In this document: positions 1 through 16,505 of the stretch, one piece after another | How the letters are laid out: each line of letters opens with the position of its first letter | Numbering within the stretch: position 1 is the stretch's first letter | From: a virus | Length of the DNA: 16,505 nt | IMG/VR virus record: IMGVR_UViG_3300045988_177740 | Strand: one strand, 5' to 3' | Made by a program: the position numbers and the translations under genes | The notes under the pieces: model-generated | What the model was told of the DNA's origin: nothing | The model's input: the letters and a program-made list of their open reading frames with translations, nothing else | The model's database searches: none

Positions 1-13
1 AAACATATATATA

Positions 14-62
14 GTCCGTCCCACGCGGACATTTTCCCAATTTTGTCCGCGTACGGCGGACA
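14..62. repeat. Two terminal palindromes: GTCCG-N7-CGGAC (14-30) and TGTCCGC-GTACG-GCGGACA (44-62)
   Basis: Read directly from the sequence. Mirrored copies lie at 16476-16492 and 16444-16462. Confidence 0.9.
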
Positions 63-73
63 GCACATTGCAC

Positions 74-111
74 AAAAAAAGCGGTGTCCGCCAGGGAAAG
101 ACACCGCTTTT
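74..111 (-). terminator. Rho-independent terminator inside the left ITR; the strong orientation faces outward on the minus strand
   Basis: An 8-bp GC-rich stem, GCGGTGTC (81-88) with GACACCGC (100-107), closes an 11-nt loop. It is flanked by A7 (74-80) and T4 (108-111). On the minus strand the hairpin is followed by U7, and it is the first terminator-like structure downstream of the last late gene (stop at 455). Confidence 0.6.
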
Positions 112-192
112 GCAAACTATTTCATTGCATTTGTTCACTTTTTAATACTTATTACAACACATATGCCCGAAATTTTTATGCATTTTACCAAC

Positions 193-221
193 TTGACAAA
201 AACGCTTTACCCGACTAAAGT
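193..221 (+). promoter_or_regulatory. Candidate sigma-A-type promoter inside the left ITR, reading inward
   Basis: TTGACA (193-198), a 17-nt spacer, then TAAAGT (216-221). A transcript from here would run convergent to the tail fibre gene. Confidence 0.35.
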
Positions 222-341
222 GTTAGTCTCGTCTAATTGTCTATACAATTCCACAATTATTCACGTTTTCCTCCCGATCCACACACAATTCTTTTGTTTT
301 ATTAACTCATTTTGCCCGAAAAGTGGGCGAAACCGCCAGTT

Positions 342-414
342 TGTCCGCGGGTCGCGGACACTTCCGAAACGGGGACTCGCTTTAGTCCGGTGAAGTGTCC
401 GTGGGTGGCGGACA
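342..414. repeat. Two inner ITR palindromes: TGTCCGCG-GGT-CGCGGACA (342-360) and TGTCCG-N7-CGGACA (396-414)
   Basis: Read directly from the sequence. A competing 9-bp pairing, GGACACTTC (356-364) with GAAGTGTCC (392-400), overlaps both palindromes. An extra GTCCG half-site lies at 385-389. Mirrored copies lie at 16146-16164 and 16092-16110. Confidence 0.9.
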
Positions 415-454
415 ATGGGTTAAGGTTTATGTGTGTAAACCTGAAAGTTGAATA

Positions 455-7373: not shown

Positions 7374-8429
7374 TTAAAACCTCCTTTTTAAATTGGGATA
7401 TAACCAGATCGGCATTTTATGCCGTTTTGGTTTCATTGGATGCGGCGGCTCCGGCGGCTCAGGTTGCTCTCCTTTTGCTAAGTACCGATATACCATCACC
7501 GCGTTGTTCAAACGTTCGGAATCAGATAAGTACCGATTCCCAACAATCCAATCGGTAATTGTAGAATCTTTCGCGTGTTCCGAAATAAAATTGAAACATT
7601 CATGTGACTTTTCCTGCCGGAACGACAAAGTACCATCGTCACTAATTCCCTCCCATCCTTTCATATAGGCGGAAGTCAGTGCGTTCAGATCTGTGCTGTC
7701 ACTGTGTAAAAACGCCTGCAGATTTCCGTAAGCACTGGCGGCTCCTACGGAATACCACACATTTTCATAGATTAAATATTCCAACTGCGCGTTACCATCT
7801 TCCCGGCTGTACCCGTTGGAATCTAACCATTGGAACAACCGCGTCCGGCGGTCGGTAGAGGAATTATCTGTCCACTGACCCAGACCATAACCGGGCGAAC
7901 CGACAATCGTGCCTTGCCATAACCCGGGGTTTACGGTTGACTCCTGCCAGAAGTTGCCGCAGATGGCGGAAATCACATACTGGCTGATACCGCTTTGTAC
8001 ATCAACCGGATACCGATAAAGATACGTCCATGCGCTATAGGGAGATACAAACGTATTGATAGATACCTGTCTTTCCAGTGGGTAGCTATCGGTATGCGCC
8101 CCCATAGTATACCCGCCGCCGTCTGCCGAGTCATATACCATTTCGGTATGCCCGGAACGCCACAAAATATCGCCTTTTTTCCAAGGCTGGTTTGCGGTTC
8201 CTTTTTGGAATCCCGCACCGATCAGATACCCGTCCATGCTCCGAGTGGTAAACCACGGGTTGCTTGCCAAAAAACCGCCGACGGTACAACAATAACTCAT
8301 AAGGGACGAACAATCATAGTACGTAATCCCTCCCACGGTCTGCCTCTCACGATACGTTTGGGAATAACCCACGTTTGGATCATTACAGATTTCGATACAA
8401 GTGTTGTAGGCAAGCGTCAGATCAGCCAC
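7374..8429 (-). CDS. Tail-associated peptidoglycan hydrolase: N-terminal Cys/His (Amidase_5 / NlpC-P60-like) domain plus C-terminal phage tail lysozyme-like domain
   Basis: GTG start with an AGAGGG ribosome-binding site 8 nt upstream. The N-terminus has GYSQTYR ... YYDCSS ... KKGDILWRSGHTEMV. The C-terminus has CGNFWQESTVNPGLW ... GYGLGQWT, which is typical of phage tail lysozyme domains. Its function parallels phi29 gp13. Confidence 0.7.
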   Translation of the reverse strand: MADLTLAYNTCIEICNDPNVGYSQTYRERQTVGGITYYDCSSLMSYCCTVGGFLASNPWFTTRSMDGYLIGAGFQKGTANQPWKKGDILWRSGHTEMVYDSADGGGYTMGAHTDSYPLERQVSINTFVSPYSAWTYLYRYPVDVQSGISQYVISAICGNFWQESTVNPGLWQGTIVGSPGYGLGQWTDNSSTDRRTRLFQWLDSNGYSREDGNAQLEYLIYENVWYSVGAASAYGNLQAFLHSDSTDLNALTSAYMKGWEGISDDGTLSFRQEKSHECFNFISEHAKDSTITDWIVGNRYLSDSERLNNAVMVYRYLAKGEQPEPPEPPHPMKPKRHKMPIWLYPNLKRRF

Positions 8430-9700: not shown

Positions 9701-9729
9701 ATGATACAGCTTTTTTATCCGTATGTCAA
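9701..9729 (-). promoter_or_regulatory. Strong sigma-A-type promoter
   Basis: On the minus strand: TTGACA (9729-9724), a 17-nt spacer, then TATCAT (9706-9701). It lies 25 nt downstream of the ATPase stop. Confidence 0.65.
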
Positions 9730-9753
9730 GTACATTTGTCCGTCTCCCACGAA

Positions 9754-10893
9754 CTATTTATAAAGATCAATCCCTAGTAACTCAACCGCCATATTCTTGC
9801 TGTCTAGATCGTCAAACCGCAAATATGCTTTGCGGTATGCGTCAACTAGATTTTCAAACAAATAATCATAGTGTTCCAACATAACCGTGTTTTGGGTATG
9901 ATCACCGTCCCGAAAAACCGCGACAAATTTACAAGACGGGTTATAGTTATGCGTAATATAGATGTACCCCTCTTCGTAATACTCATACACTCCATAACTT
10001 TTTCCACTATGCTCGATGGTGAACAGATACCGCGACCGTCCGGTCGGCTTTTGTACAAACACGGCATCATCAATCAACATCTGATCTCCAACACTCATGC
10101 TTTGCATATAGTGTCCGCCGCGGAATGCTTTCAAAGCAGTATTCTCCCACATGGCTTTACTGGCACTGTCATTGTGAGTAAACTCACACACAAAACCGCT
10201 CCCATGCAGCATTTTTGTTTCTTTCTGGTATCTCTTATGGATACCAAAAAATACAAAATAGGGATTGAGCAACGAAATATTATTGGATGACATTACCAGT
10301 TTAAACCATCGGGACTGACTTCCGTTTCCGCGGCTGATCGTCAATAGCAACGATTGCAGTTTTTCAGATTCCCCTTTTACGTATTGTCCGCTTTCCATGC
10401 TGAACTCGTCAAAAAACAAAAAGTAGATATCCCGAAAATACGGAGATAATTTTTTTACACTGTCCATCTTACTTCCAAAACTAAACGCGCATCCGAATGG
10501 CACGCCGTCCAGAAAATACCGCACAACATTTCCGTTTTTGTCCAGATTTTTATAGGTAATCACACTTCCTAATTTAGGATACATTCTTAGCATATCTTCG
10601 TACATTGCCGCCGCTCCCGTCATTTCCCCTTTCGTCCGGAAAATCCATCCGGTCTGCAATCCGTACTCTTTGCACAAGATACAGCTTGCCGCGGCGAACG
10701 CACTTGTCTTTCCGGCGCTACGGTTGGAACACGTAATTGCCACTCCAGCGAAATCCCCGTCCACGTCCGGCTCTGAAAACAACCGAATCGGATTGTAATA
10801 CTGAATCGCTTTCCCGTTATCGTCTACCGCTTCAAATTTCACATTATATTCAGCAAAAAGTTTTTCCCATTGAATATCGTTCCAAAAAATCAT
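9754..10893 (-). CDS. DNA packaging (encapsidation) ATPase, phi29 gp16-like
   Basis: 379 aa. It has a Walker A motif (SNRSAGKTSA) and a Walker B motif (IYFLFFDEF). The size and motif spacing fit gp16-type small-podovirus packaging ATPases. Confidence 0.85.
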   Translation of the reverse strand: MIFWNDIQWEKLFAEYNVKFEAVDDNGKAIQYYNPIRLFSEPDVDGDFAGVAITCSNRSAGKTSAFAAASCILCKEYGLQTGWIFRTKGEMTGAAAMYEDMLRMYPKLGSVITYKNLDKNGNVVRYFLDGVPFGCAFSFGSKMDSVKKLSPYFRDIYFLFFDEFSMESGQYVKGESEKLQSLLLTISRGNGSQSRWFKLVMSSNNISLLNPYFVFFGIHKRYQKETKMLHGSGFVCEFTHNDSASKAMWENTALKAFRGGHYMQSMSVGDQMLIDDAVFVQKPTGRSRYLFTIEHSGKSYGVYEYYEEGYIYITHNYNPSCKFVAVFRDGDHTQNTVMLEHYDYLFENLVDAYRKAYLRFDDLDSKNMAVELLGIDLYK

Positions 10894-10922
10894 TGTTTCA
10901 CGTGAAACATTTTTGTTTCACG
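10894..10922. promoter_or_regulatory. Perfect 16-bp palindrome TGTTTCACGTGAAACA (10894-10909) plus an extra half-site TGTTTCACG (10914-10922), abutting the ATPase start codon
   Basis: Read directly from the sequence. An identical 20-nt element recurs at 14300-14319. The only ribosome-binding site (GGAGGG, 10928-10923) lies 29 nt from the ATPase ATG. Confidence 0.5.
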
Positions 10923-10980
10923 CCCTCCTTTCTTCTTTTTTCCCGCTCCGCGTTACCACGGTTATCTGAATCTCTAACGT

Positions 10981-11043
10981 CCCGCCAGTTCCCCGCCAGC
11001 AAAACCGCAGACAATCTCACGTTTATCGCACGATAATCGCACG
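10981..11043. promoter_or_regulatory. Direct repeats phased at 11 bp: CCCGCCAG twice and ATC(G/T)CACG three times
   Basis: CCCGCCAG occurs at 10981-10988 and 10992-10999. ATCTCACG occurs at 11014-11021, and ATCGCACG at 11025-11032 and 11036-11043. Every spacing is exactly 11 nt. Confidence 0.45.
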
Positions 11044-11088
11044 TTTTGATTGCAGATGGACGGCGGGAAAGGCAGAGCTACGCTGGGT

Positions 11089-11123
11089 ATAAAAAGAGCT
11101 ACGCTGGAAAACGTAGCTCTTTT
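11089..11123 (-). terminator. Rho-independent terminator downstream of the 139-aa gene
   Basis: The minus-strand RNA reads AAAGAGCUACG-UUUUCCAG-CGUAGCUCUUU followed by UUAU. The stem is 11 bp with an 8-nt loop, and the U run reaches 5 when the stem Us are counted. Confidence 0.7.
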
Positions 11124-11141
11124 ACACGTATGGAATGAAGT

Positions 11142-11170
11142 TTTATAATACAAGATATAGTAACAATCAA
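11142..11170 (-). promoter_or_regulatory. Weak candidate promoter just upstream of the 11089-11123 terminator
   Basis: On the minus strand: TTGATT (11170-11165), a 17-nt spacer, then TATAAA (11147-11142). The context is AT-rich, so this could be a chance match. Confidence 0.25.
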
Positions 11171-11235
11171 CTACAGGTAACATAAATACTCAAGTTACCG
11201 TCCGCCAGTCGGGGCGCGTACCCAGTTCATGGTAA

Positions 11236-11655
11236 TTAAGCAAACGGATTAAATTTTTCCGTATCGCCGAATTTGTGTACATTTACCGCGGAAAGGTAAG
11301 CTGTGAATCCCTTGTCGCGGCGGAACTTGCTTTCTCCGATGGAAATGAACAGGTCTACTACTGCGCCTTTACCCAGTTCGGAAACACTGGAAACGGTTTC
11401 GCTCTCTACGCCGTCCTCGTAAAAGTCAACGCGGTAATTGGTCTGCGCTTTCACGTACAAACCAGCTTCGGAGGTTTCCTTTGCAGGAATCCATTTCGCT
11501 TCTGCGGCGGCATCTTCCCCGAACTCCTCGATGATCTTTTCAAAGATTACTTTCTGCTGATCGGCAGAGATAGAAGCGGAAAGAACGCTTTTGCCGTCTT
11601 CCTCTTTTGCGTATTTAACAGTTACGTTGTTTAATTTCATTTTAGCTTTGCTCAT
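11236..11655 (-). CDS. Hypothetical protein, possibly a ssDNA-binding protein (functional analogue of phi29 p5); the function is tentative
   Basis: 139 aa and acidic, with an AAAGGAGA ribosome-binding site. It sits in the replication block and is followed by its own strong terminator, which suggests abundant expression. The C-terminus (FGDTEKFNPFA) is aromatic. No diagnostic motif was recognised. Confidence 0.35.
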   Translation of the reverse strand: MSKAKMKLNNVTVKYAKEEDGKSVLSASISADQQKVIFEKIIEEFGEDAAAEAKWIPAKETSEAGLYVKAQTNYRVDFYEDGVESETVSSVSELGKGAVVDLFISIGESKFRRDKGFTAYLSAVNVHKFGDTEKFNPFA

Positions 11656-11757: not shown

Positions 11758-11991
11758 TTAGTCCAGTCTTTTTGCTTCTGCAAAAAACTGTTCATCCGGC
11801 ATTTCGTAGCGGGCGGATACGGTGTCGATTAAGACGCAAACGGAATCTTCCGGCAGTCCTGCCGAGATGACAGCATCTTTTTTGGCTTTCTGCGATTTTA
11901 ATTCTGAGTCAGAGTCAAAACAACCGAGTTCCTGTCTTGTTTTTCTGTCAATGACGGCGTACTTCCATTTTTCGATTTTTGTTCTAACCAT
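11758..11991 (-). CDS. Hypothetical protein (77 aa)
   Basis: AAAGGAGA ribosome-binding site 6 nt upstream of the ATG. It is the first gene after the 12036-12064 promoter. Confidence 0.65.
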   Translation of the reverse strand: MVRTKIEKWKYAVIDRKTRQELGCFDSDSELKSQKAKKDAVISAGLPEDSVCVLIDTVSARYEMPDEQFFAEAKRLD

Positions 11992-12201: not shown

Positions 12202-14361
12202 CTATTCCGGTATCACTCCGTCTTGAGAGTTTACCAACACTTCATAGTATTCATTTGATACTCCTAAGGTATAAGTGGTATCAATAATTCCGATGTTACT
12301 AGCAGTTAAAATTTCTTCCCCGTTTACTTTGATGTAATGTGGTTTCGAGTTGTTGAAACAACTGATCGTACGTCCGACATTTTCCATCCGGCGGCAGAGC
12401 CGGAAATTATTACAGCATTTCAAGTTTTCCGCTCCTAGTTTTTTATTCATACCCGCAACCGTAGATGTAAAACGTACGGGATCTTTGCCAGATTTCGCCG
12501 CTTTTTTATCCCATTCAACGCCGCAATATTTTTTCGCGCCAAGGGTTTTAAATTGGATATACAGAGCATCCATATCCCATACGCCGAGAATGTATCGTTT
12601 TTCGCCTACATCGCAAAACGCAGGAATATCGTTTTCAATCGCACGTTTGGAAAGTAATTTGTTTTTGTCTTCAAATTCTGGTATATGTTCTTCCGGATGT
12701 AAAAATTTGATGCTATCCGTGTCGCAGTAAACAACATCCATTCCAACAACGTCCAGCATATCTTGTAGTTGTTTTCTCGCGTGGGCAGTAACGTAGATTC
12801 CCCACTGATAGTGCAAAAAGCTATTCTTACTTTCATAATACGTGTTCAGTGCTTTTTCCGCATCTGCTTTTTCCCGCGTCCATTCTCCCGTGGTTTGGTT
12901 CATCACCCATTCGTCCTGTAAAAGATCAGTAACACACATACCGAATGTACTGTTTAATTTATTCTTAGATTTCATGTACTCATAGACTTTATCGGGGTTT
13001 CCTTTTAAACGGCTTTTTGCTATAAAAAATGACATCATGGTTTCCCGCATACTGTCCGGTAACTTTCCACGCGCGGCTACGTAGCACTCAGACACGGTAA
13101 AAAAGTCGTATTCATACTGGTTTCTTATGATTTCCAAGTCAATCTCTGTCATGGCGATCTCGCAACAATCTATAGAGAGTACTCGTCCATTATCAATCAC
13201 ATACTCTTTTCCGTGCTTCTGACACTTTGAAAGAGGGATATATGGAACCGGAATGTTTTCTTTAATATGCAAATTATCAAATTGTACCCGCATGATAACG
13301 CAACGACTGCCACATAAGTTATCAAATTGATCTTGAGATGTAATCTCTACAGCCCTAAACGCACTCATGGGATAGTAACCCATTGCTATCTGCGCGGGGT
13401 AGCTGCTGGAAATATCCATGCTTCCCATTACGATTGCGTTTTCCCTTTTTTTCGCGGTGATCGTGTGTCCCGCGTGGATGCGGTTGGCGTGCGTGTTGCC
13501 GCCGCGGAACGCATCTTTGCAAAGACGGTATTGAGACAACGTTAGCGCAAGGTCAGTAAAAACATCGGGATAATAGTTTTTATCCGCTTGCATGGCACGG
13601 CGGAACTCGCGGCGGACGTAGCCAGTTGAAGTAAGGGGGATTTCCGCAAGGTTGTCCTCTTTACGCGCGGCACGGATGCATTCACATAAACCGCGAACAT
13701 CGTTATAGCAGTAACCTTGCTCACTTTCCATAAGTGGTGTGGTTGGTGTACGTAGTTTTTTGTAGTCATACGTATCAACCAATTTATAATGGATTACACC
13801 ATCACTGTTCTCACAGAATTTTGACAGCGACATATTGCTTAAAAAGTAAGAACACCGGAACTCGATACCGTACTTATAAGCGTAACATTTCATCACTTTA
13901 TGTGCGTCACGTGCGAATATTTCATCAAATTCAATGAAATCTTTCATAAATTGAAATTCATACGACAAGTTATGAACGTATACTACAGCACGTTTCGTAT
14001 CGGAAGTTTTCAAATACAGATGCAGTTTTTCGCAAAACGACAAAAACTCGTTCCATGTGCGGCCAAAACACACGGTGTCTTTCATACAAAACTGCCAGTG
14101 ATACAGAAAGGCGGTTCCTTTTACTACTTTTTCACCCGTTTTATTATAGCGTTCATAGTCCAATTTTTCCAACGTGGTTGTTTCAATATCAAACGCCATT
14201 TCCACGTCATAATAAACGATAGGATTTTTCTTTCTTCCACGCTTGCGGCATTCGCGCGCAGTCTGGAAAGATGAAAACGGAAAATCGTCAACGCTATAAA
14301 TTGTTTCACGTGAAACATTCTCTTTTCCGTCTTGCATAACAGGGACTTGTAATTCGTACAT
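12202..14361 (-). CDS. Family-B DNA polymerase of the protein-primed (phi29 gp2) type
   Basis: 719 aa. Exonuclease motifs: Exo I FDIETTT, Exo II VHNLSYEFQF, Exo III YCYNDV. Polymerase motifs: pre-motif A FRGGNTH, motif A MDISSSYPAQ, motif B KNKLNSTFGM, motif C VYCDTDSIKF, and KxY as GAKKY. An AGGTGA ribosome-binding site sits 5 nt upstream of the ATG. Confidence 0.97.
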   Translation of the reverse strand: MYELQVPVMQDGKENVSRETIYSVDDFPFSSFQTARECRKRGRKKNPIVYYDVEMAFDIETTTLEKLDYERYNKTGEKVVKGTAFLYHWQFCMKDTVCFGRTWNEFLSFCEKLHLYLKTSDTKRAVVYVHNLSYEFQFMKDFIEFDEIFARDAHKVMKCYAYKYGIEFRCSYFLSNMSLSKFCENSDGVIHYKLVDTYDYKKLRTPTTPLMESEQGYCYNDVRGLCECIRAARKEDNLAEIPLTSTGYVRREFRRAMQADKNYYPDVFTDLALTLSQYRLCKDAFRGGNTHANRIHAGHTITAKKRENAIVMGSMDISSSYPAQIAMGYYPMSAFRAVEITSQDQFDNLCGSRCVIMRVQFDNLHIKENIPVPYIPLSKCQKHGKEYVIDNGRVLSIDCCEIAMTEIDLEIIRNQYEYDFFTVSECYVAARGKLPDSMRETMMSFFIAKSRLKGNPDKVYEYMKSKNKLNSTFGMCVTDLLQDEWVMNQTTGEWTREKADAEKALNTYYESKNSFLHYQWGIYVTAHARKQLQDMLDVVGMDVVYCDTDSIKFLHPEEHIPEFEDKNKLLSKRAIENDIPAFCDVGEKRYILGVWDMDALYIQFKTLGAKKYCGVEWDKKAAKSGKDPVRFTSTVAGMNKKLGAENLKCCNNFRLCRRMENVGRTISCFNNSKPHYIKVNGEEILTASNIGIIDTTYTLGVSNEYYEVLVNSQDGVIPE
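14302..14317. promoter_or_regulatory. Second copy of the 16-bp palindrome TGTTTCACGTGAAACA, inside codons 15-20 of the polymerase ORF
   Basis: Read directly from the sequence. The 20-nt block 14300-14319 is identical to 10892-10911. Confidence 0.4.
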
Positions 14362-15995: not shown

Positions 15996-16023
15996 ACAAT
16001 ACCACTTTCTGGAAATATGTCAA
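15996..16023 (-). promoter_or_regulatory. Early sigma-A-type promoter at the inner edge of the right ITR
   Basis: On the minus strand: TTGACA (16023-16018), a 16-nt spacer, then TATTGT (16001-15996) preceded by TGg. Its architecture closely matches the promoter at 12036-12064 (TTGACA ... TG-n-TATT(A/G)TAAT). Confidence 0.55.
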
Positions 16024-16027
16024 TACT

Positions 16028-16049
16028 TTTCTAGAAAAATTTCTAGAAA
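16028..16049. promoter_or_regulatory. Two TTTCTAGAAA palindromes just upstream of the early promoter -35 box
   Basis: Copies at 16028-16037 and 16040-16049, 12 nt apart start to start. The nearer copy lies 5 nt upstream of the -35 box. Confidence 0.3.
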
Positions 16050-16284
16050 ATTTATTCCATTTAATATTACACACATATTCATTCTGCCCATTGTCCGCCA
16101 CCCACGGACACTTTAGCAGACTAAAGTGAGTCCCCTTTTCGGAAGTGTCCGCGACCCGCGGACAAACTGGCGGTTTCGCCCACTTTTCGGGCAAAATGAG
16201 TTAATAAAACAAAAGAATTGTGTGTGGATCGGGAGGAAAACGTGAATAATTGTGGAATTGTATAGACAATTAGACGAGACTAAC

Positions 16285-16313
16285 ACTTTAGTCGGGTAAA
16301 GCGTTTTTGTCAA
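16285..16313 (-). promoter_or_regulatory. Mirror copy of the ITR promoter, reading inward in the same direction as all genes
   Basis: On the minus strand: TTGACA (16313-16308), a 17-nt spacer, then TAAAGT (16290-16285). Confidence 0.4.
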
Positions 16314-16394
16314 GTTGGTAAAATGCATAAAAATTTCGGGCATATGTGTTGTAATAAGTATTAAAAAGTGAACAAATGCAATGAAATAGTTTGC

Positions 16395-16432
16395 AAAAGC
16401 GGTGTCTTTCCCTGGCGGACACCGCTTTTTTT
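16395..16432 (+). terminator. Mirror copy of the ITR terminator hairpin
   Basis: Same hairpin as 74-111. Here the U7 orientation is on the plus strand, facing outward. The inward (minus-strand) orientation has only U4. Confidence 0.35.
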
Positions 16433-16505
16433 GTGCAATGTGCTGTCCGCCGTACGCGGACAAAATTGGGAAAATGTCCGCGTGGGACGGACTATATATA
16501 TGTTT

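Follow-up and report, generated by a model that had tools for sequence, protein, structure and literature searches.

The DNA analysed, IMG/VR record IMGVR_UViG_3300045988_177740 (16,505 bp; hereafter the window, meaning the whole stretch), is a complete linear genome of a phi29-like podovirus from the human gut with an inverted terminal repeat (ITR) at each end, and both ITRs carry several copies of a 19-bp dyad, TGTCCG-N7-CGGACA. These sites exist, they are statistically exceptional, their arms are selectively conserved, and their position and phase are kept across very distant phages. I lean, with modest confidence, towards reading them as an auxiliary replication-origin array, that is, as sites for a sequence-specific protein at the ends of a protein-primed genome. 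That a protein binds them, that it plays a role in initiation and which protein it might be are matters that I infer from the sequence.

The left ITR (1-419, 419 nt) is 99% complementary to the right one (16087-16505), with mismatches at 370, 379, 388, 390 and 392 and divergence beyond 419. Its first 12 nt (AAACATATATAT, 1-12), which are A/T-rich in this genome, are the putative priming and unwinding segment preceding the first site, and the terminal AAA is compatible with the sliding-back initiation known from phi29 (PMC4974454). Next come P1 (AGTCCG-TCCCACG-CGGACA, 13-31), a linker (TTTTCCCAATTT, 32-43; consensus CTTCCCCAAATT) that is kept between lineages with almost no other DNA similarity, and P2 (TGTCCG-CGTACGG-CGGACA, 44-62), 31 bp or about three helical turns from P1. 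Further inside lie P3 (TGTCCG-CGGGTCG-CGGACA, 342-360) and P4 (TGTCCG-TGGGTGG-CGGACA, 396-414), both with the spacer orientation flipped, the latter marking the inner limit of ITR homology. A degenerate fifth copy (TGTCCG-CCAGGGA-AAGACA, 85-103) forms the core of a bidirectional terminator hairpin at 80-108. The mirror sites in the right ITR are at 16475-16493, 16444-16462, 16403-16421, 16146-16164 and 16092-16110. The original prediction, made from the sequence of the window, had described four palindromes per ITR with spacers of 3-7 nt. All four are real, but a single 19-bp frame with a constant N7 accommodates P1, P2, P3 and P4; the variable spacer had arisen because extra paired bases had been counted. 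An alternative 9-bp helix that it had drawn between the inner pair (356-364 with 392-400) does exist, but it comes from the shared arms plus CTTC/GAAG and is kept neither in the right ITR nor in relatives.

The supposed concentration of GTCCG or CGGAC in the ITRs is borne out by counting, with 10 occurrences in the left ITR and nine in the right versus 19 (15 GTCCG and four CGGAC) in the 15,667-bp interior. At the interior rate a stretch of 419 bp should hold 0.51 of them (Poisson P = 2e-10), and the k-mer enrichment places TGTCCG/CGGACA as the top enriched 6-mer of the ITR (46-fold). Allowing up to two mismatches, TGTCCG-N7-CGGACA has 11 matches in the window versus 0.46 expected, a number reached in none of 200 shuffles; the ITRs account for ten and the remaining one is an internal copy at 9737-9755. 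Extra half-sites had been reported as well; the one at 385, which reads GTCTG on the right and so explains the lower count in that ITR, is not conserved among relatives.

Those relatives come from a polymerase-based scan of IMG/VR that returned 110 related loci, of which I kept 80 at 89-93% polymerase identity. Some 25 of the kept loci hold a full ITR (82-94% identity), giving an alignment of 26 ITRs in which, as expected of genuine sites in the original prediction, the palindromes are conserved: the arms are nearly invariant while spacers and flanks vary. Variable columns number 5 of 48 in the arms (mostly singletons), 16 of 28 in the spacers and 131 of 326 in the rest of the ITR (Fisher tests: arms versus spacers, 3e-5; arms versus the rest, 4e-5). 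The arms of P1 are invariant apart from position 13, which is A in the window genome and T in several relatives. P3 keeps its arms while its spacer varies (GGT, TCC, GGA, GGG), and 24 of 25 relatives retain the TGTCCG of the degenerate copy at 85-103, with a variable loop. Homology of the ITR with relatives spans 1-414 and stops at the final base of P4, just past which several relatives have one or two additional copies of the palindrome. In many close relatives the DNA between P4 and the early promoter contains a G+C-rich insert in which short repeats with GTCCG (CCGTCCGTTCCGTCCG...) are joined by extra full palindromes (L002, L007, L009, L011, L021 and others, about 415-520 in locus coordinates); the window is without this insert.

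A second scan of IMG/VR, for the pair of sites, returned 104 stretches, close relatives among them. About 45 of the 104 are phi29-like contigs of 13-14 kb, with 28-47% G+C, whose polymerases are 31-42% identical to that of the window (the intermediate contigs L152 and L175 reach 45-54%). No similarity of their capsid proteins or ATPases to the window proteins was detected by tblastn or phmmer, and their collar proteins give at most weak phmmer matches to the window's. The proteins that do match across these contigs are the polymerase, the holin, some lysin or tail domains and, by profile, the terminal protein. At both ends they carry a terminal block consisting of 12 lineage-specific nt, P1, a TTCCCC-containing linker and P2. 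Across all lineages the first base of P1 is nt 13 and that of P2 is nt 44-46 (31-32 nt after P1 in the 13-14-kb contigs), and exactly 12 nt stand ahead of P1 wherever a contig reaches furthest, longer prefixes being remnants of Nextera adapters. These 12 nt usually end in TATA(T/C)A or TCTCA. The terminal block is among the very few DNA segments that blastn can align between the window and the 13-14-kb genomes, and in L144 and L153 it alone makes up the entire ITR of 54-63 bp. In several distant lineages the sites extend into an array with a period of 32-33 bp, about three turns, the further copies being weaker; their positions are 6, 38, 71, 104 and 137 in L109, 9, 41, 74 and 107 in L092, and 13, 45, 78 and 111 in L095 and L118.

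Beyond the motif-bearing lineages, the closest cultured phage, Clostridium phage HM2 (L081; polymerase identity 45%), has TGT-N13-ACA 19-mers at 14-32 and 43-61, that is, at the P1 and P2 offsets, with the GTCCG arms lost. Amedibacillus phage AD70P2 (L082) has a different hexamer within 1-55, GTGCTA three times plus TAGCAC. Lineage-specific end motifs may perhaps be general among phi29-like phages. Near the inner ITR edge of one distant lineage (L098, L100, L108, L139 and L184) there is a sequence resembling the Gram-positive LexA box (CGAACATGTGTTC), a possible host-factor site.

What the sites have in common narrows the kind of recognition that might be involved. A logo from 106 distinct sites reads TGTCCG-Y-C-n-C-M-C-R-CGGACA. 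The symmetric portion is 6 + 6 bp: Watson-Crick pairing extends to positions 7/13 in 20 of 39 distinct sites and to positions 8/12 in 6 of 39. Between the arms one strand carries a homopyrimidine tract rich in C, with C at position 12 in 96% of the 106 sites. Orientation relative to the genome end varies, being flipped in P3 and P4 of the window and in P1 and P2 of L119 and L132. This variable orientation, together with the poor pairing past 6 bp, argues against strand-specific recognition of a single strand or of RNA and against selection for hairpin stability. The shared arm sequence and the unfixed orientation favour a symmetric protein that would recognise the DNA duplex and prefer a particular spacer geometry.

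Because the arms are conserved and identical while spacers and flanks vary, and because hairpin covariation is absent, the set of sites behaves as a binding array; the fixed 12-nt offset and the terminal pair, conserved across very distant phi29-like phages, fit a role as origin organiser. Both points agree with the original prediction, which had proposed a binding array for a phage-encoded protein that organises the origin or coordinates transcription with replication; the link to transcription is plausible, but a second motif (CCGCCAG) and two of the candidate binders that it had brought in fall away, as described below. In the model that I prefer, the 12-bp terminal segment would be the start point for the complex of terminal protein and polymerase. 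A dimeric sequence-specific protein that binds double-stranded DNA (dsDNA) would occupy the two or more 19-bp dyads that come next at spacings of whole helical turns, all on one helix face, and the nucleoprotein complex would position or recruit the initiation complex and help to open the end. P3, P4 and the weak copy by the promoter at 9729 might allow the same protein to act on late transcription and on early transcription that reads through from the ITR promoter.

As to the binder, my tentative first choice is p77, a 77-aa early protein (11758-11991, minus strand) that is a candidate dsDNA-binding protein of the p6 family. A conserved host factor is possible if somewhat doubtful, some other protein is unlikely, and the terminal protein or polymerase is the least likely of the four. 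The p77 gene stands just after the polymerase gene, which is the position of the p6 homologues in the L098, L126 and L089 lineages, where the small protein is a true homologue of phi29 p6 (PDB 8PW4, E 1.2e-4; phrog_6370, E 7e-8). By hhalign p77 aligns with the p6 family at P 0.014; against an enlarged p6 family the alignment covers 49 columns with P 3.3e-4, and p77 shares a Y-x-M-x-x-E-x-F motif with the enlarged family. The best BFVD matches of its AlphaFold2 model (pLDDT 86) include phi29-like entries named 'double-strand binding protein' and 'p6', all of them weak (E 2e-3 to 5e-2, TM about 0.4). There is no direct PDB or Pfam match for p77, and Pfam and PHROGs reveal no DNA-binding domain in the small early proteins. 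The original prediction had put forward the early proteins of 77, 139 and 116 aa as binders. The hint of p6 kinship lends the first of them weak support, whereas the 116-aa and 139-aa proteins have no significant family match and are not shared with the distant motif-bearing lineages. Iterated profiles of p45, p62, p116, p76, p40, p77 and p139, run against the open reading frames (ORFs) of the fetched loci, do not reach those lineages; the terminal protein alone does so. When polymerases of phages with and without the motif are aligned, the first 200 columns show no N-terminal extension peculiar to the motif-bearing group.

Several observations weigh against an origin array bound by such a protein. 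Lysis proteins aside, the polymerase and the terminal protein are common to all motif-bearing lineages, and no other early protein detectably is. The p6-family profile finds no match in the motif-bearing L095, L109, L113, L125 and L153, and it does match HM2, whose terminal 19-mers have no GTCCG arms. Phi29 p6 itself is not sequence-specific and has a 24-bp binding repeat (PMC4974454). A symmetric dimer does not obviously explain the asymmetric, C-rich spacer core, and half-site centres 13 bp apart are unusual for a simple helix-turn-helix dimer. Finally, P3 and P4 are confined to the lineage of the window, so their role is less certain.

A doubtful but serious alternative makes the binder a conserved host protein, with the phages having converged on, or kept, docking sites 12 nt from their ends. 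Such a factor, or its recognition code, might be shared with the origin iterons of unrelated high-G+C phages described below, and motif-bearing phages do carry perfect parS sites for host ParB. None of the familiar host regulator sites (the Spo0A box and those of TnrA/GlnR, LexA, CIRCE, Noc, RacA and CggR) is known to fit the half-site and spacing, and I can name no host regulator with a TGTCCG-N7-CGGACA dyad.

I consider it unlikely that the sites are operators of a transcription regulator for the ITR and early promoters, with their position at the end incidental and replication independent of them. The ITR does contain an inward-facing sigma-70-like promoter (TTGACA-17-TAAAGT, 193-221, plus strand; mirror 16313-16285, minus strand) with a -10 region (ACTAAAGTGTTAGT) that is invariant in relatives. 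Both P3 and P4 are downstream of this promoter, and both are upstream of the early promoter 16023-15996. The internal weak copy (TGTCCG-TCTCCCA-CGAACT, 9737-9755) is likewise suggestive, for it stops 7 nt short of the -35 box, on the upstream side, of a predicted promoter (9729-9701, minus strand). The original prediction had spotted this near copy, which proves real over the extent just given, and in eight relatives the site is TCCGTCCCACGCGGAC, an exact 16-nt copy of P1, so that in the lineage of the window the site is plausibly coupled in some way to the expression of late or lysis genes. However, the universally conserved P1 and P2 are outside the predicted transcription units at a fixed 12 nt from the end; they lie between the outward terminator at 80-108 and the genome end, outside the inward promoter, and are therefore probably untranscribed. 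The ITR of L144 and L153 contains just these two sites. The internal weak copies of distant lineages, between the ATPase and holin genes, occur about once per genome, near the chance frequency, and they are inside transcribed leaders, downstream of the promoter. The early promoter also has palindromes of its own, three copies of TTTCTAGAAA or TTTCTGGAAA over and around its -35 box (16006-16051), present in relatives as well; these are better operator candidates, and the TGTCCG sites are therefore unlikely to be the main early operator.

Somewhat less probable still is the idea that the palindromes work as DNA hairpins or cruciforms, either on the single strand displaced in strand-displacement replication or as template-switch hotspots that make or homogenise the ITR, with no dedicated sequence-specific protein. 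A stem of 6-8 bp is possible at each site (-8.7 to -13.3 kcal/mol as RNA), and ITR homology stops exactly at P4, where relatives have duplicated copies. Moreover, the terminator loop is the exact reverse complement in L023 (73-108) and L064 (56-91), which points to stem-mediated inversion; a flip-flop of the loop across its stem suggests that a hairpin or cruciform forms there in vivo. Yet structure does not need the sameness that is observed, with one arm sequence within the genome and across phages of about 33% polymerase identity, and no arm shows a compensatory change. The low pairing at 7/13 and 8/12 given above indicates that pairing past 6 bp is unselected, a 6-bp stem with a 7-nt loop makes a poor cruciform, the orientation to the end is variable, and the ITR edge in other lineages is not at a palindrome. 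The window also differs from the telomere fold-backs of Streptomyces in having arms that are invariant rather than covarying, an unfixed orientation and frequent mismatch at 7/13.

It is very unlikely that the sites are RNA elements, be they terminators, stability hairpins or components of a structured RNA, for instance an ITR-encoded packaging RNA. P3 and P4 could be transcribed from the promoter at 193-221, and the copy at 85-103 is within a genuine terminator hairpin, but the combination of a G+C-rich stem and a T-run is found in the 80-108 hairpin only and P1-P4 have no T-run. Searching the whole window against Rfam at a permissive threshold gave no relevant match, phi29 packaging RNA included. 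RNAalifold, applied to ITR positions 225-425 of 16 genomes, found 0 compensatory pairs (covariation term -0.33), a result of modest power given the limited divergence. The variable orientation and the probable lack of transcription of P1 and P2 speak against RNA as well. That the array is a chance or compositional effect of the ITR, whose G+C of 0.43 is slightly above its surroundings, or an assembly artefact, as the Nextera remnants at some contig ends might suggest, can be dismissed, for no shuffle attains the observed counts and the same arrangement stands at both ends of over 100 independent contigs, drawn from several studies.

If the TGTCCG sites are an origin array, to which known system do they belong? 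The array resembles the NFI/Oct-1 sites of adenovirus, the p6 regions of phi29 and the iterons of lambda in function, and it is a member of none of these as defined. The auxiliary origin of adenovirus consists of an NFI site (a TGGC-N5-GCCAA-type dyad) and an Oct-1 site in the ITR beside the core origin at 1-18. The window likewise has ITRs and a protein-primed family-B polymerase on a linear genome, with a dyad a fixed short distance from the end beside the priming segment, two adjacent sites in the ITR, and conservation of these sequence-specific-type sites in relatives. In contrast, the binders in adenovirus are host transcription factors with experimentally shown binding and stimulation, whereas the window sites are known from their sequence; these are also identical copies of one motif that extend, in their type, to phased arrays of up to five.

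In phi29 itself, p6 is a small, abundant dsDNA-binding protein that nucleates at 46-68 on the left and at 62-125 on the right; besides controlling promoters, it opens the DNA end so that initiation primed by the terminal protein can take place (PMC4974454). A p6-family protein is present in several motif-bearing lineages, p77 being the candidate for one in the window. Unlike the window sites, with their strict 12-base consensus, spacer preferences and 31-33 bp period, p6 reads bendability with a 24-bp repeat, and phi29 has an ITR of 6 bp and ends without TGTCCG dyads.

The origin of lambda contains phased 19-bp dyad repeats, bound by the O initiator, beside an A/T-rich region and inside the initiator gene. 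The window-type sites are also phased 19-bp dyads in three to five copies, with an A/T-rich segment alongside in the window genome, but the window has no cognate winged-helix initiator, and its replication would be protein-primed from the ends, not theta-type. The yeast linear plasmids pGKL1/2, again protein-primed linear replicons with sites inside the ITR, encode a terminal-region recognition factor that binds specific ITR sequences; their sites are further from the end, are not dyad arrays and have no sequence relationship to those of the window. Phi29 DNA has Spo0A boxes near its ends and parS sites for Spo0J/ParB, and the window, with its perfect parS sites, is similarly a phi29-family genome carrying sites for conserved host proteins; the 0A box (TGTCGAA, in direct repeats) is, however, unlike TGTCCG-N7-CGGACA. 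Literature searches for this dyad with iterons, ITRs or terminal proteins returned primer coincidences only and no earlier description, in keeping with the statement in the original prediction that no such motif system was on record.

The remaining stretches returned by the site-pair scan come from unrelated phages or prophages; these contigs have a G+C of 57-71% and carry arrays of TGTCCGG-N5-CCGGACA, up to seven copies spaced mostly 33-36 bp apart (L091, L096, L112, L141, L156, L161 and L163, with about 70% G+C, and L121, L123, L131, L136, L143 and L146). These arrays lie in or beside genes whose N-terminal part is winged-helix-initiator-like. L136 matches Phage_rep_O (E 5e-7) and has DnaA-box-like sequences alongside, L096 has a weak TrmB-like match (E 0.0014), and the other initiators were assigned by eye. 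At least five of the initiators are unrelated to one another in sequence. The high-G+C arrays look like lambda-O-type origin iterons inside an initiator gene, with an A/T-rich spacer where window-type sites have a C-rich one. Among the window proteins there is no match to Phage_rep_O, a helix-turn-helix or another winged-helix initiator. The recurrence of the TGTCCG half-site and its spacing in apparent origin iterons elsewhere offers an analogy and a lead, and it does not show that the window belongs with them.

Origin recognition in protein-primed phages is known almost solely from phi29, where p6 reads DNA shape and not sequence. A strict, phased dyad at a fixed offset, common to very divergent uncultured gut phages, offers a defined DNA target for a search for the binder and for initiation in vitro. 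If the binder were a host protein, the sites would be a bacterial counterpart to the use of NFI and Oct-1 by adenovirus, and protein-primed initiation with the help of host factors would be a general strategy. In practical terms, a TGTCCG-N7-CGGACA site whose first base is nucleotide 13 indicates a true genome end, so that complete phi29-like genomes can be recognised among metagenome assemblies.

The credible genes of the window are all on the minus strand and have phi29-type products, including upper collar, lower collar, tail and major head proteins, a packaging ATPase (9754-10893) and a phi29-type family-B DNA polymerase (12202-14361; phrog_1907, E 4e-51). A gene directly upstream of that for the polymerase, the expected slot of the terminal protein, encodes a 194-aa protein that an iterated profile links to the genes in terminal-protein position of distant relatives. 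Searching 50,697 deposited phage genomes gave no near relative by megablast of the whole genome and no motif-bearing relative by blastn with end fragments; the latter search picked up one truncated human-faecal contig that begins within P2. A polymerase-based scan of reference bacterial genomes for a host gave a single distant match in a metagenome-assembled genome, without the motif. The identical polymerase is present on contigs from a human gut metagenome.

Some further features deserve mention. The window contains two perfect parS sites of 16 bp (TGTTTCACGTGAAACA, the binding consensus for host ParB/Spo0J) against a chance expectation of 0.07, one overlapping the start of the ATPase gene (10894-10909) and the other within the 5' part of the polymerase gene (14302-14317). 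They are kept in nearly all close relatives, and very distant motif-bearing lineages have 1-5 copies and HM2 has one; in phi29 such sites are a means of trapping the phage in spores. Other invariant blocks of the ITR are three TTGCA-containing motifs (66-75, 108-117 and 123-133) flanking the terminator and a palindrome, AATTGT-CTAT-ACAATT (233-250), just downstream of the ITR promoter.

Between the gene for the 139-aa protein and the ATPase gene there is a 340-nt non-coding stretch (10893-11236, minus strand) with a promoter-like TTGATT-17-TATAAA (found by eye), a strong terminator-like hairpin (AAAAGAGCTACG...CGTAGCTCTTTTT), copies of CCGCCAG, a 22-nt tandem repeat (11006-11046) and an apparently spurious 69-aa ORF. 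This stretch could be a small RNA gene. The original prediction had tied this ATPase-upstream region to the ITR through CCGCCAG, which is indeed over-represented in the window (8 versus 0.85 expected), but both ITR copies vary freely among relatives and another copy is at 7735 on the minus strand; I have rejected it as a motif common to the ITR and the control region. Lastly, the gene for the 646-aa distal tail protein has a 300-bp unit repeated 2.8 times in tandem at 1051-1879, with 98% identity, corresponding to repeats of 100 aa.

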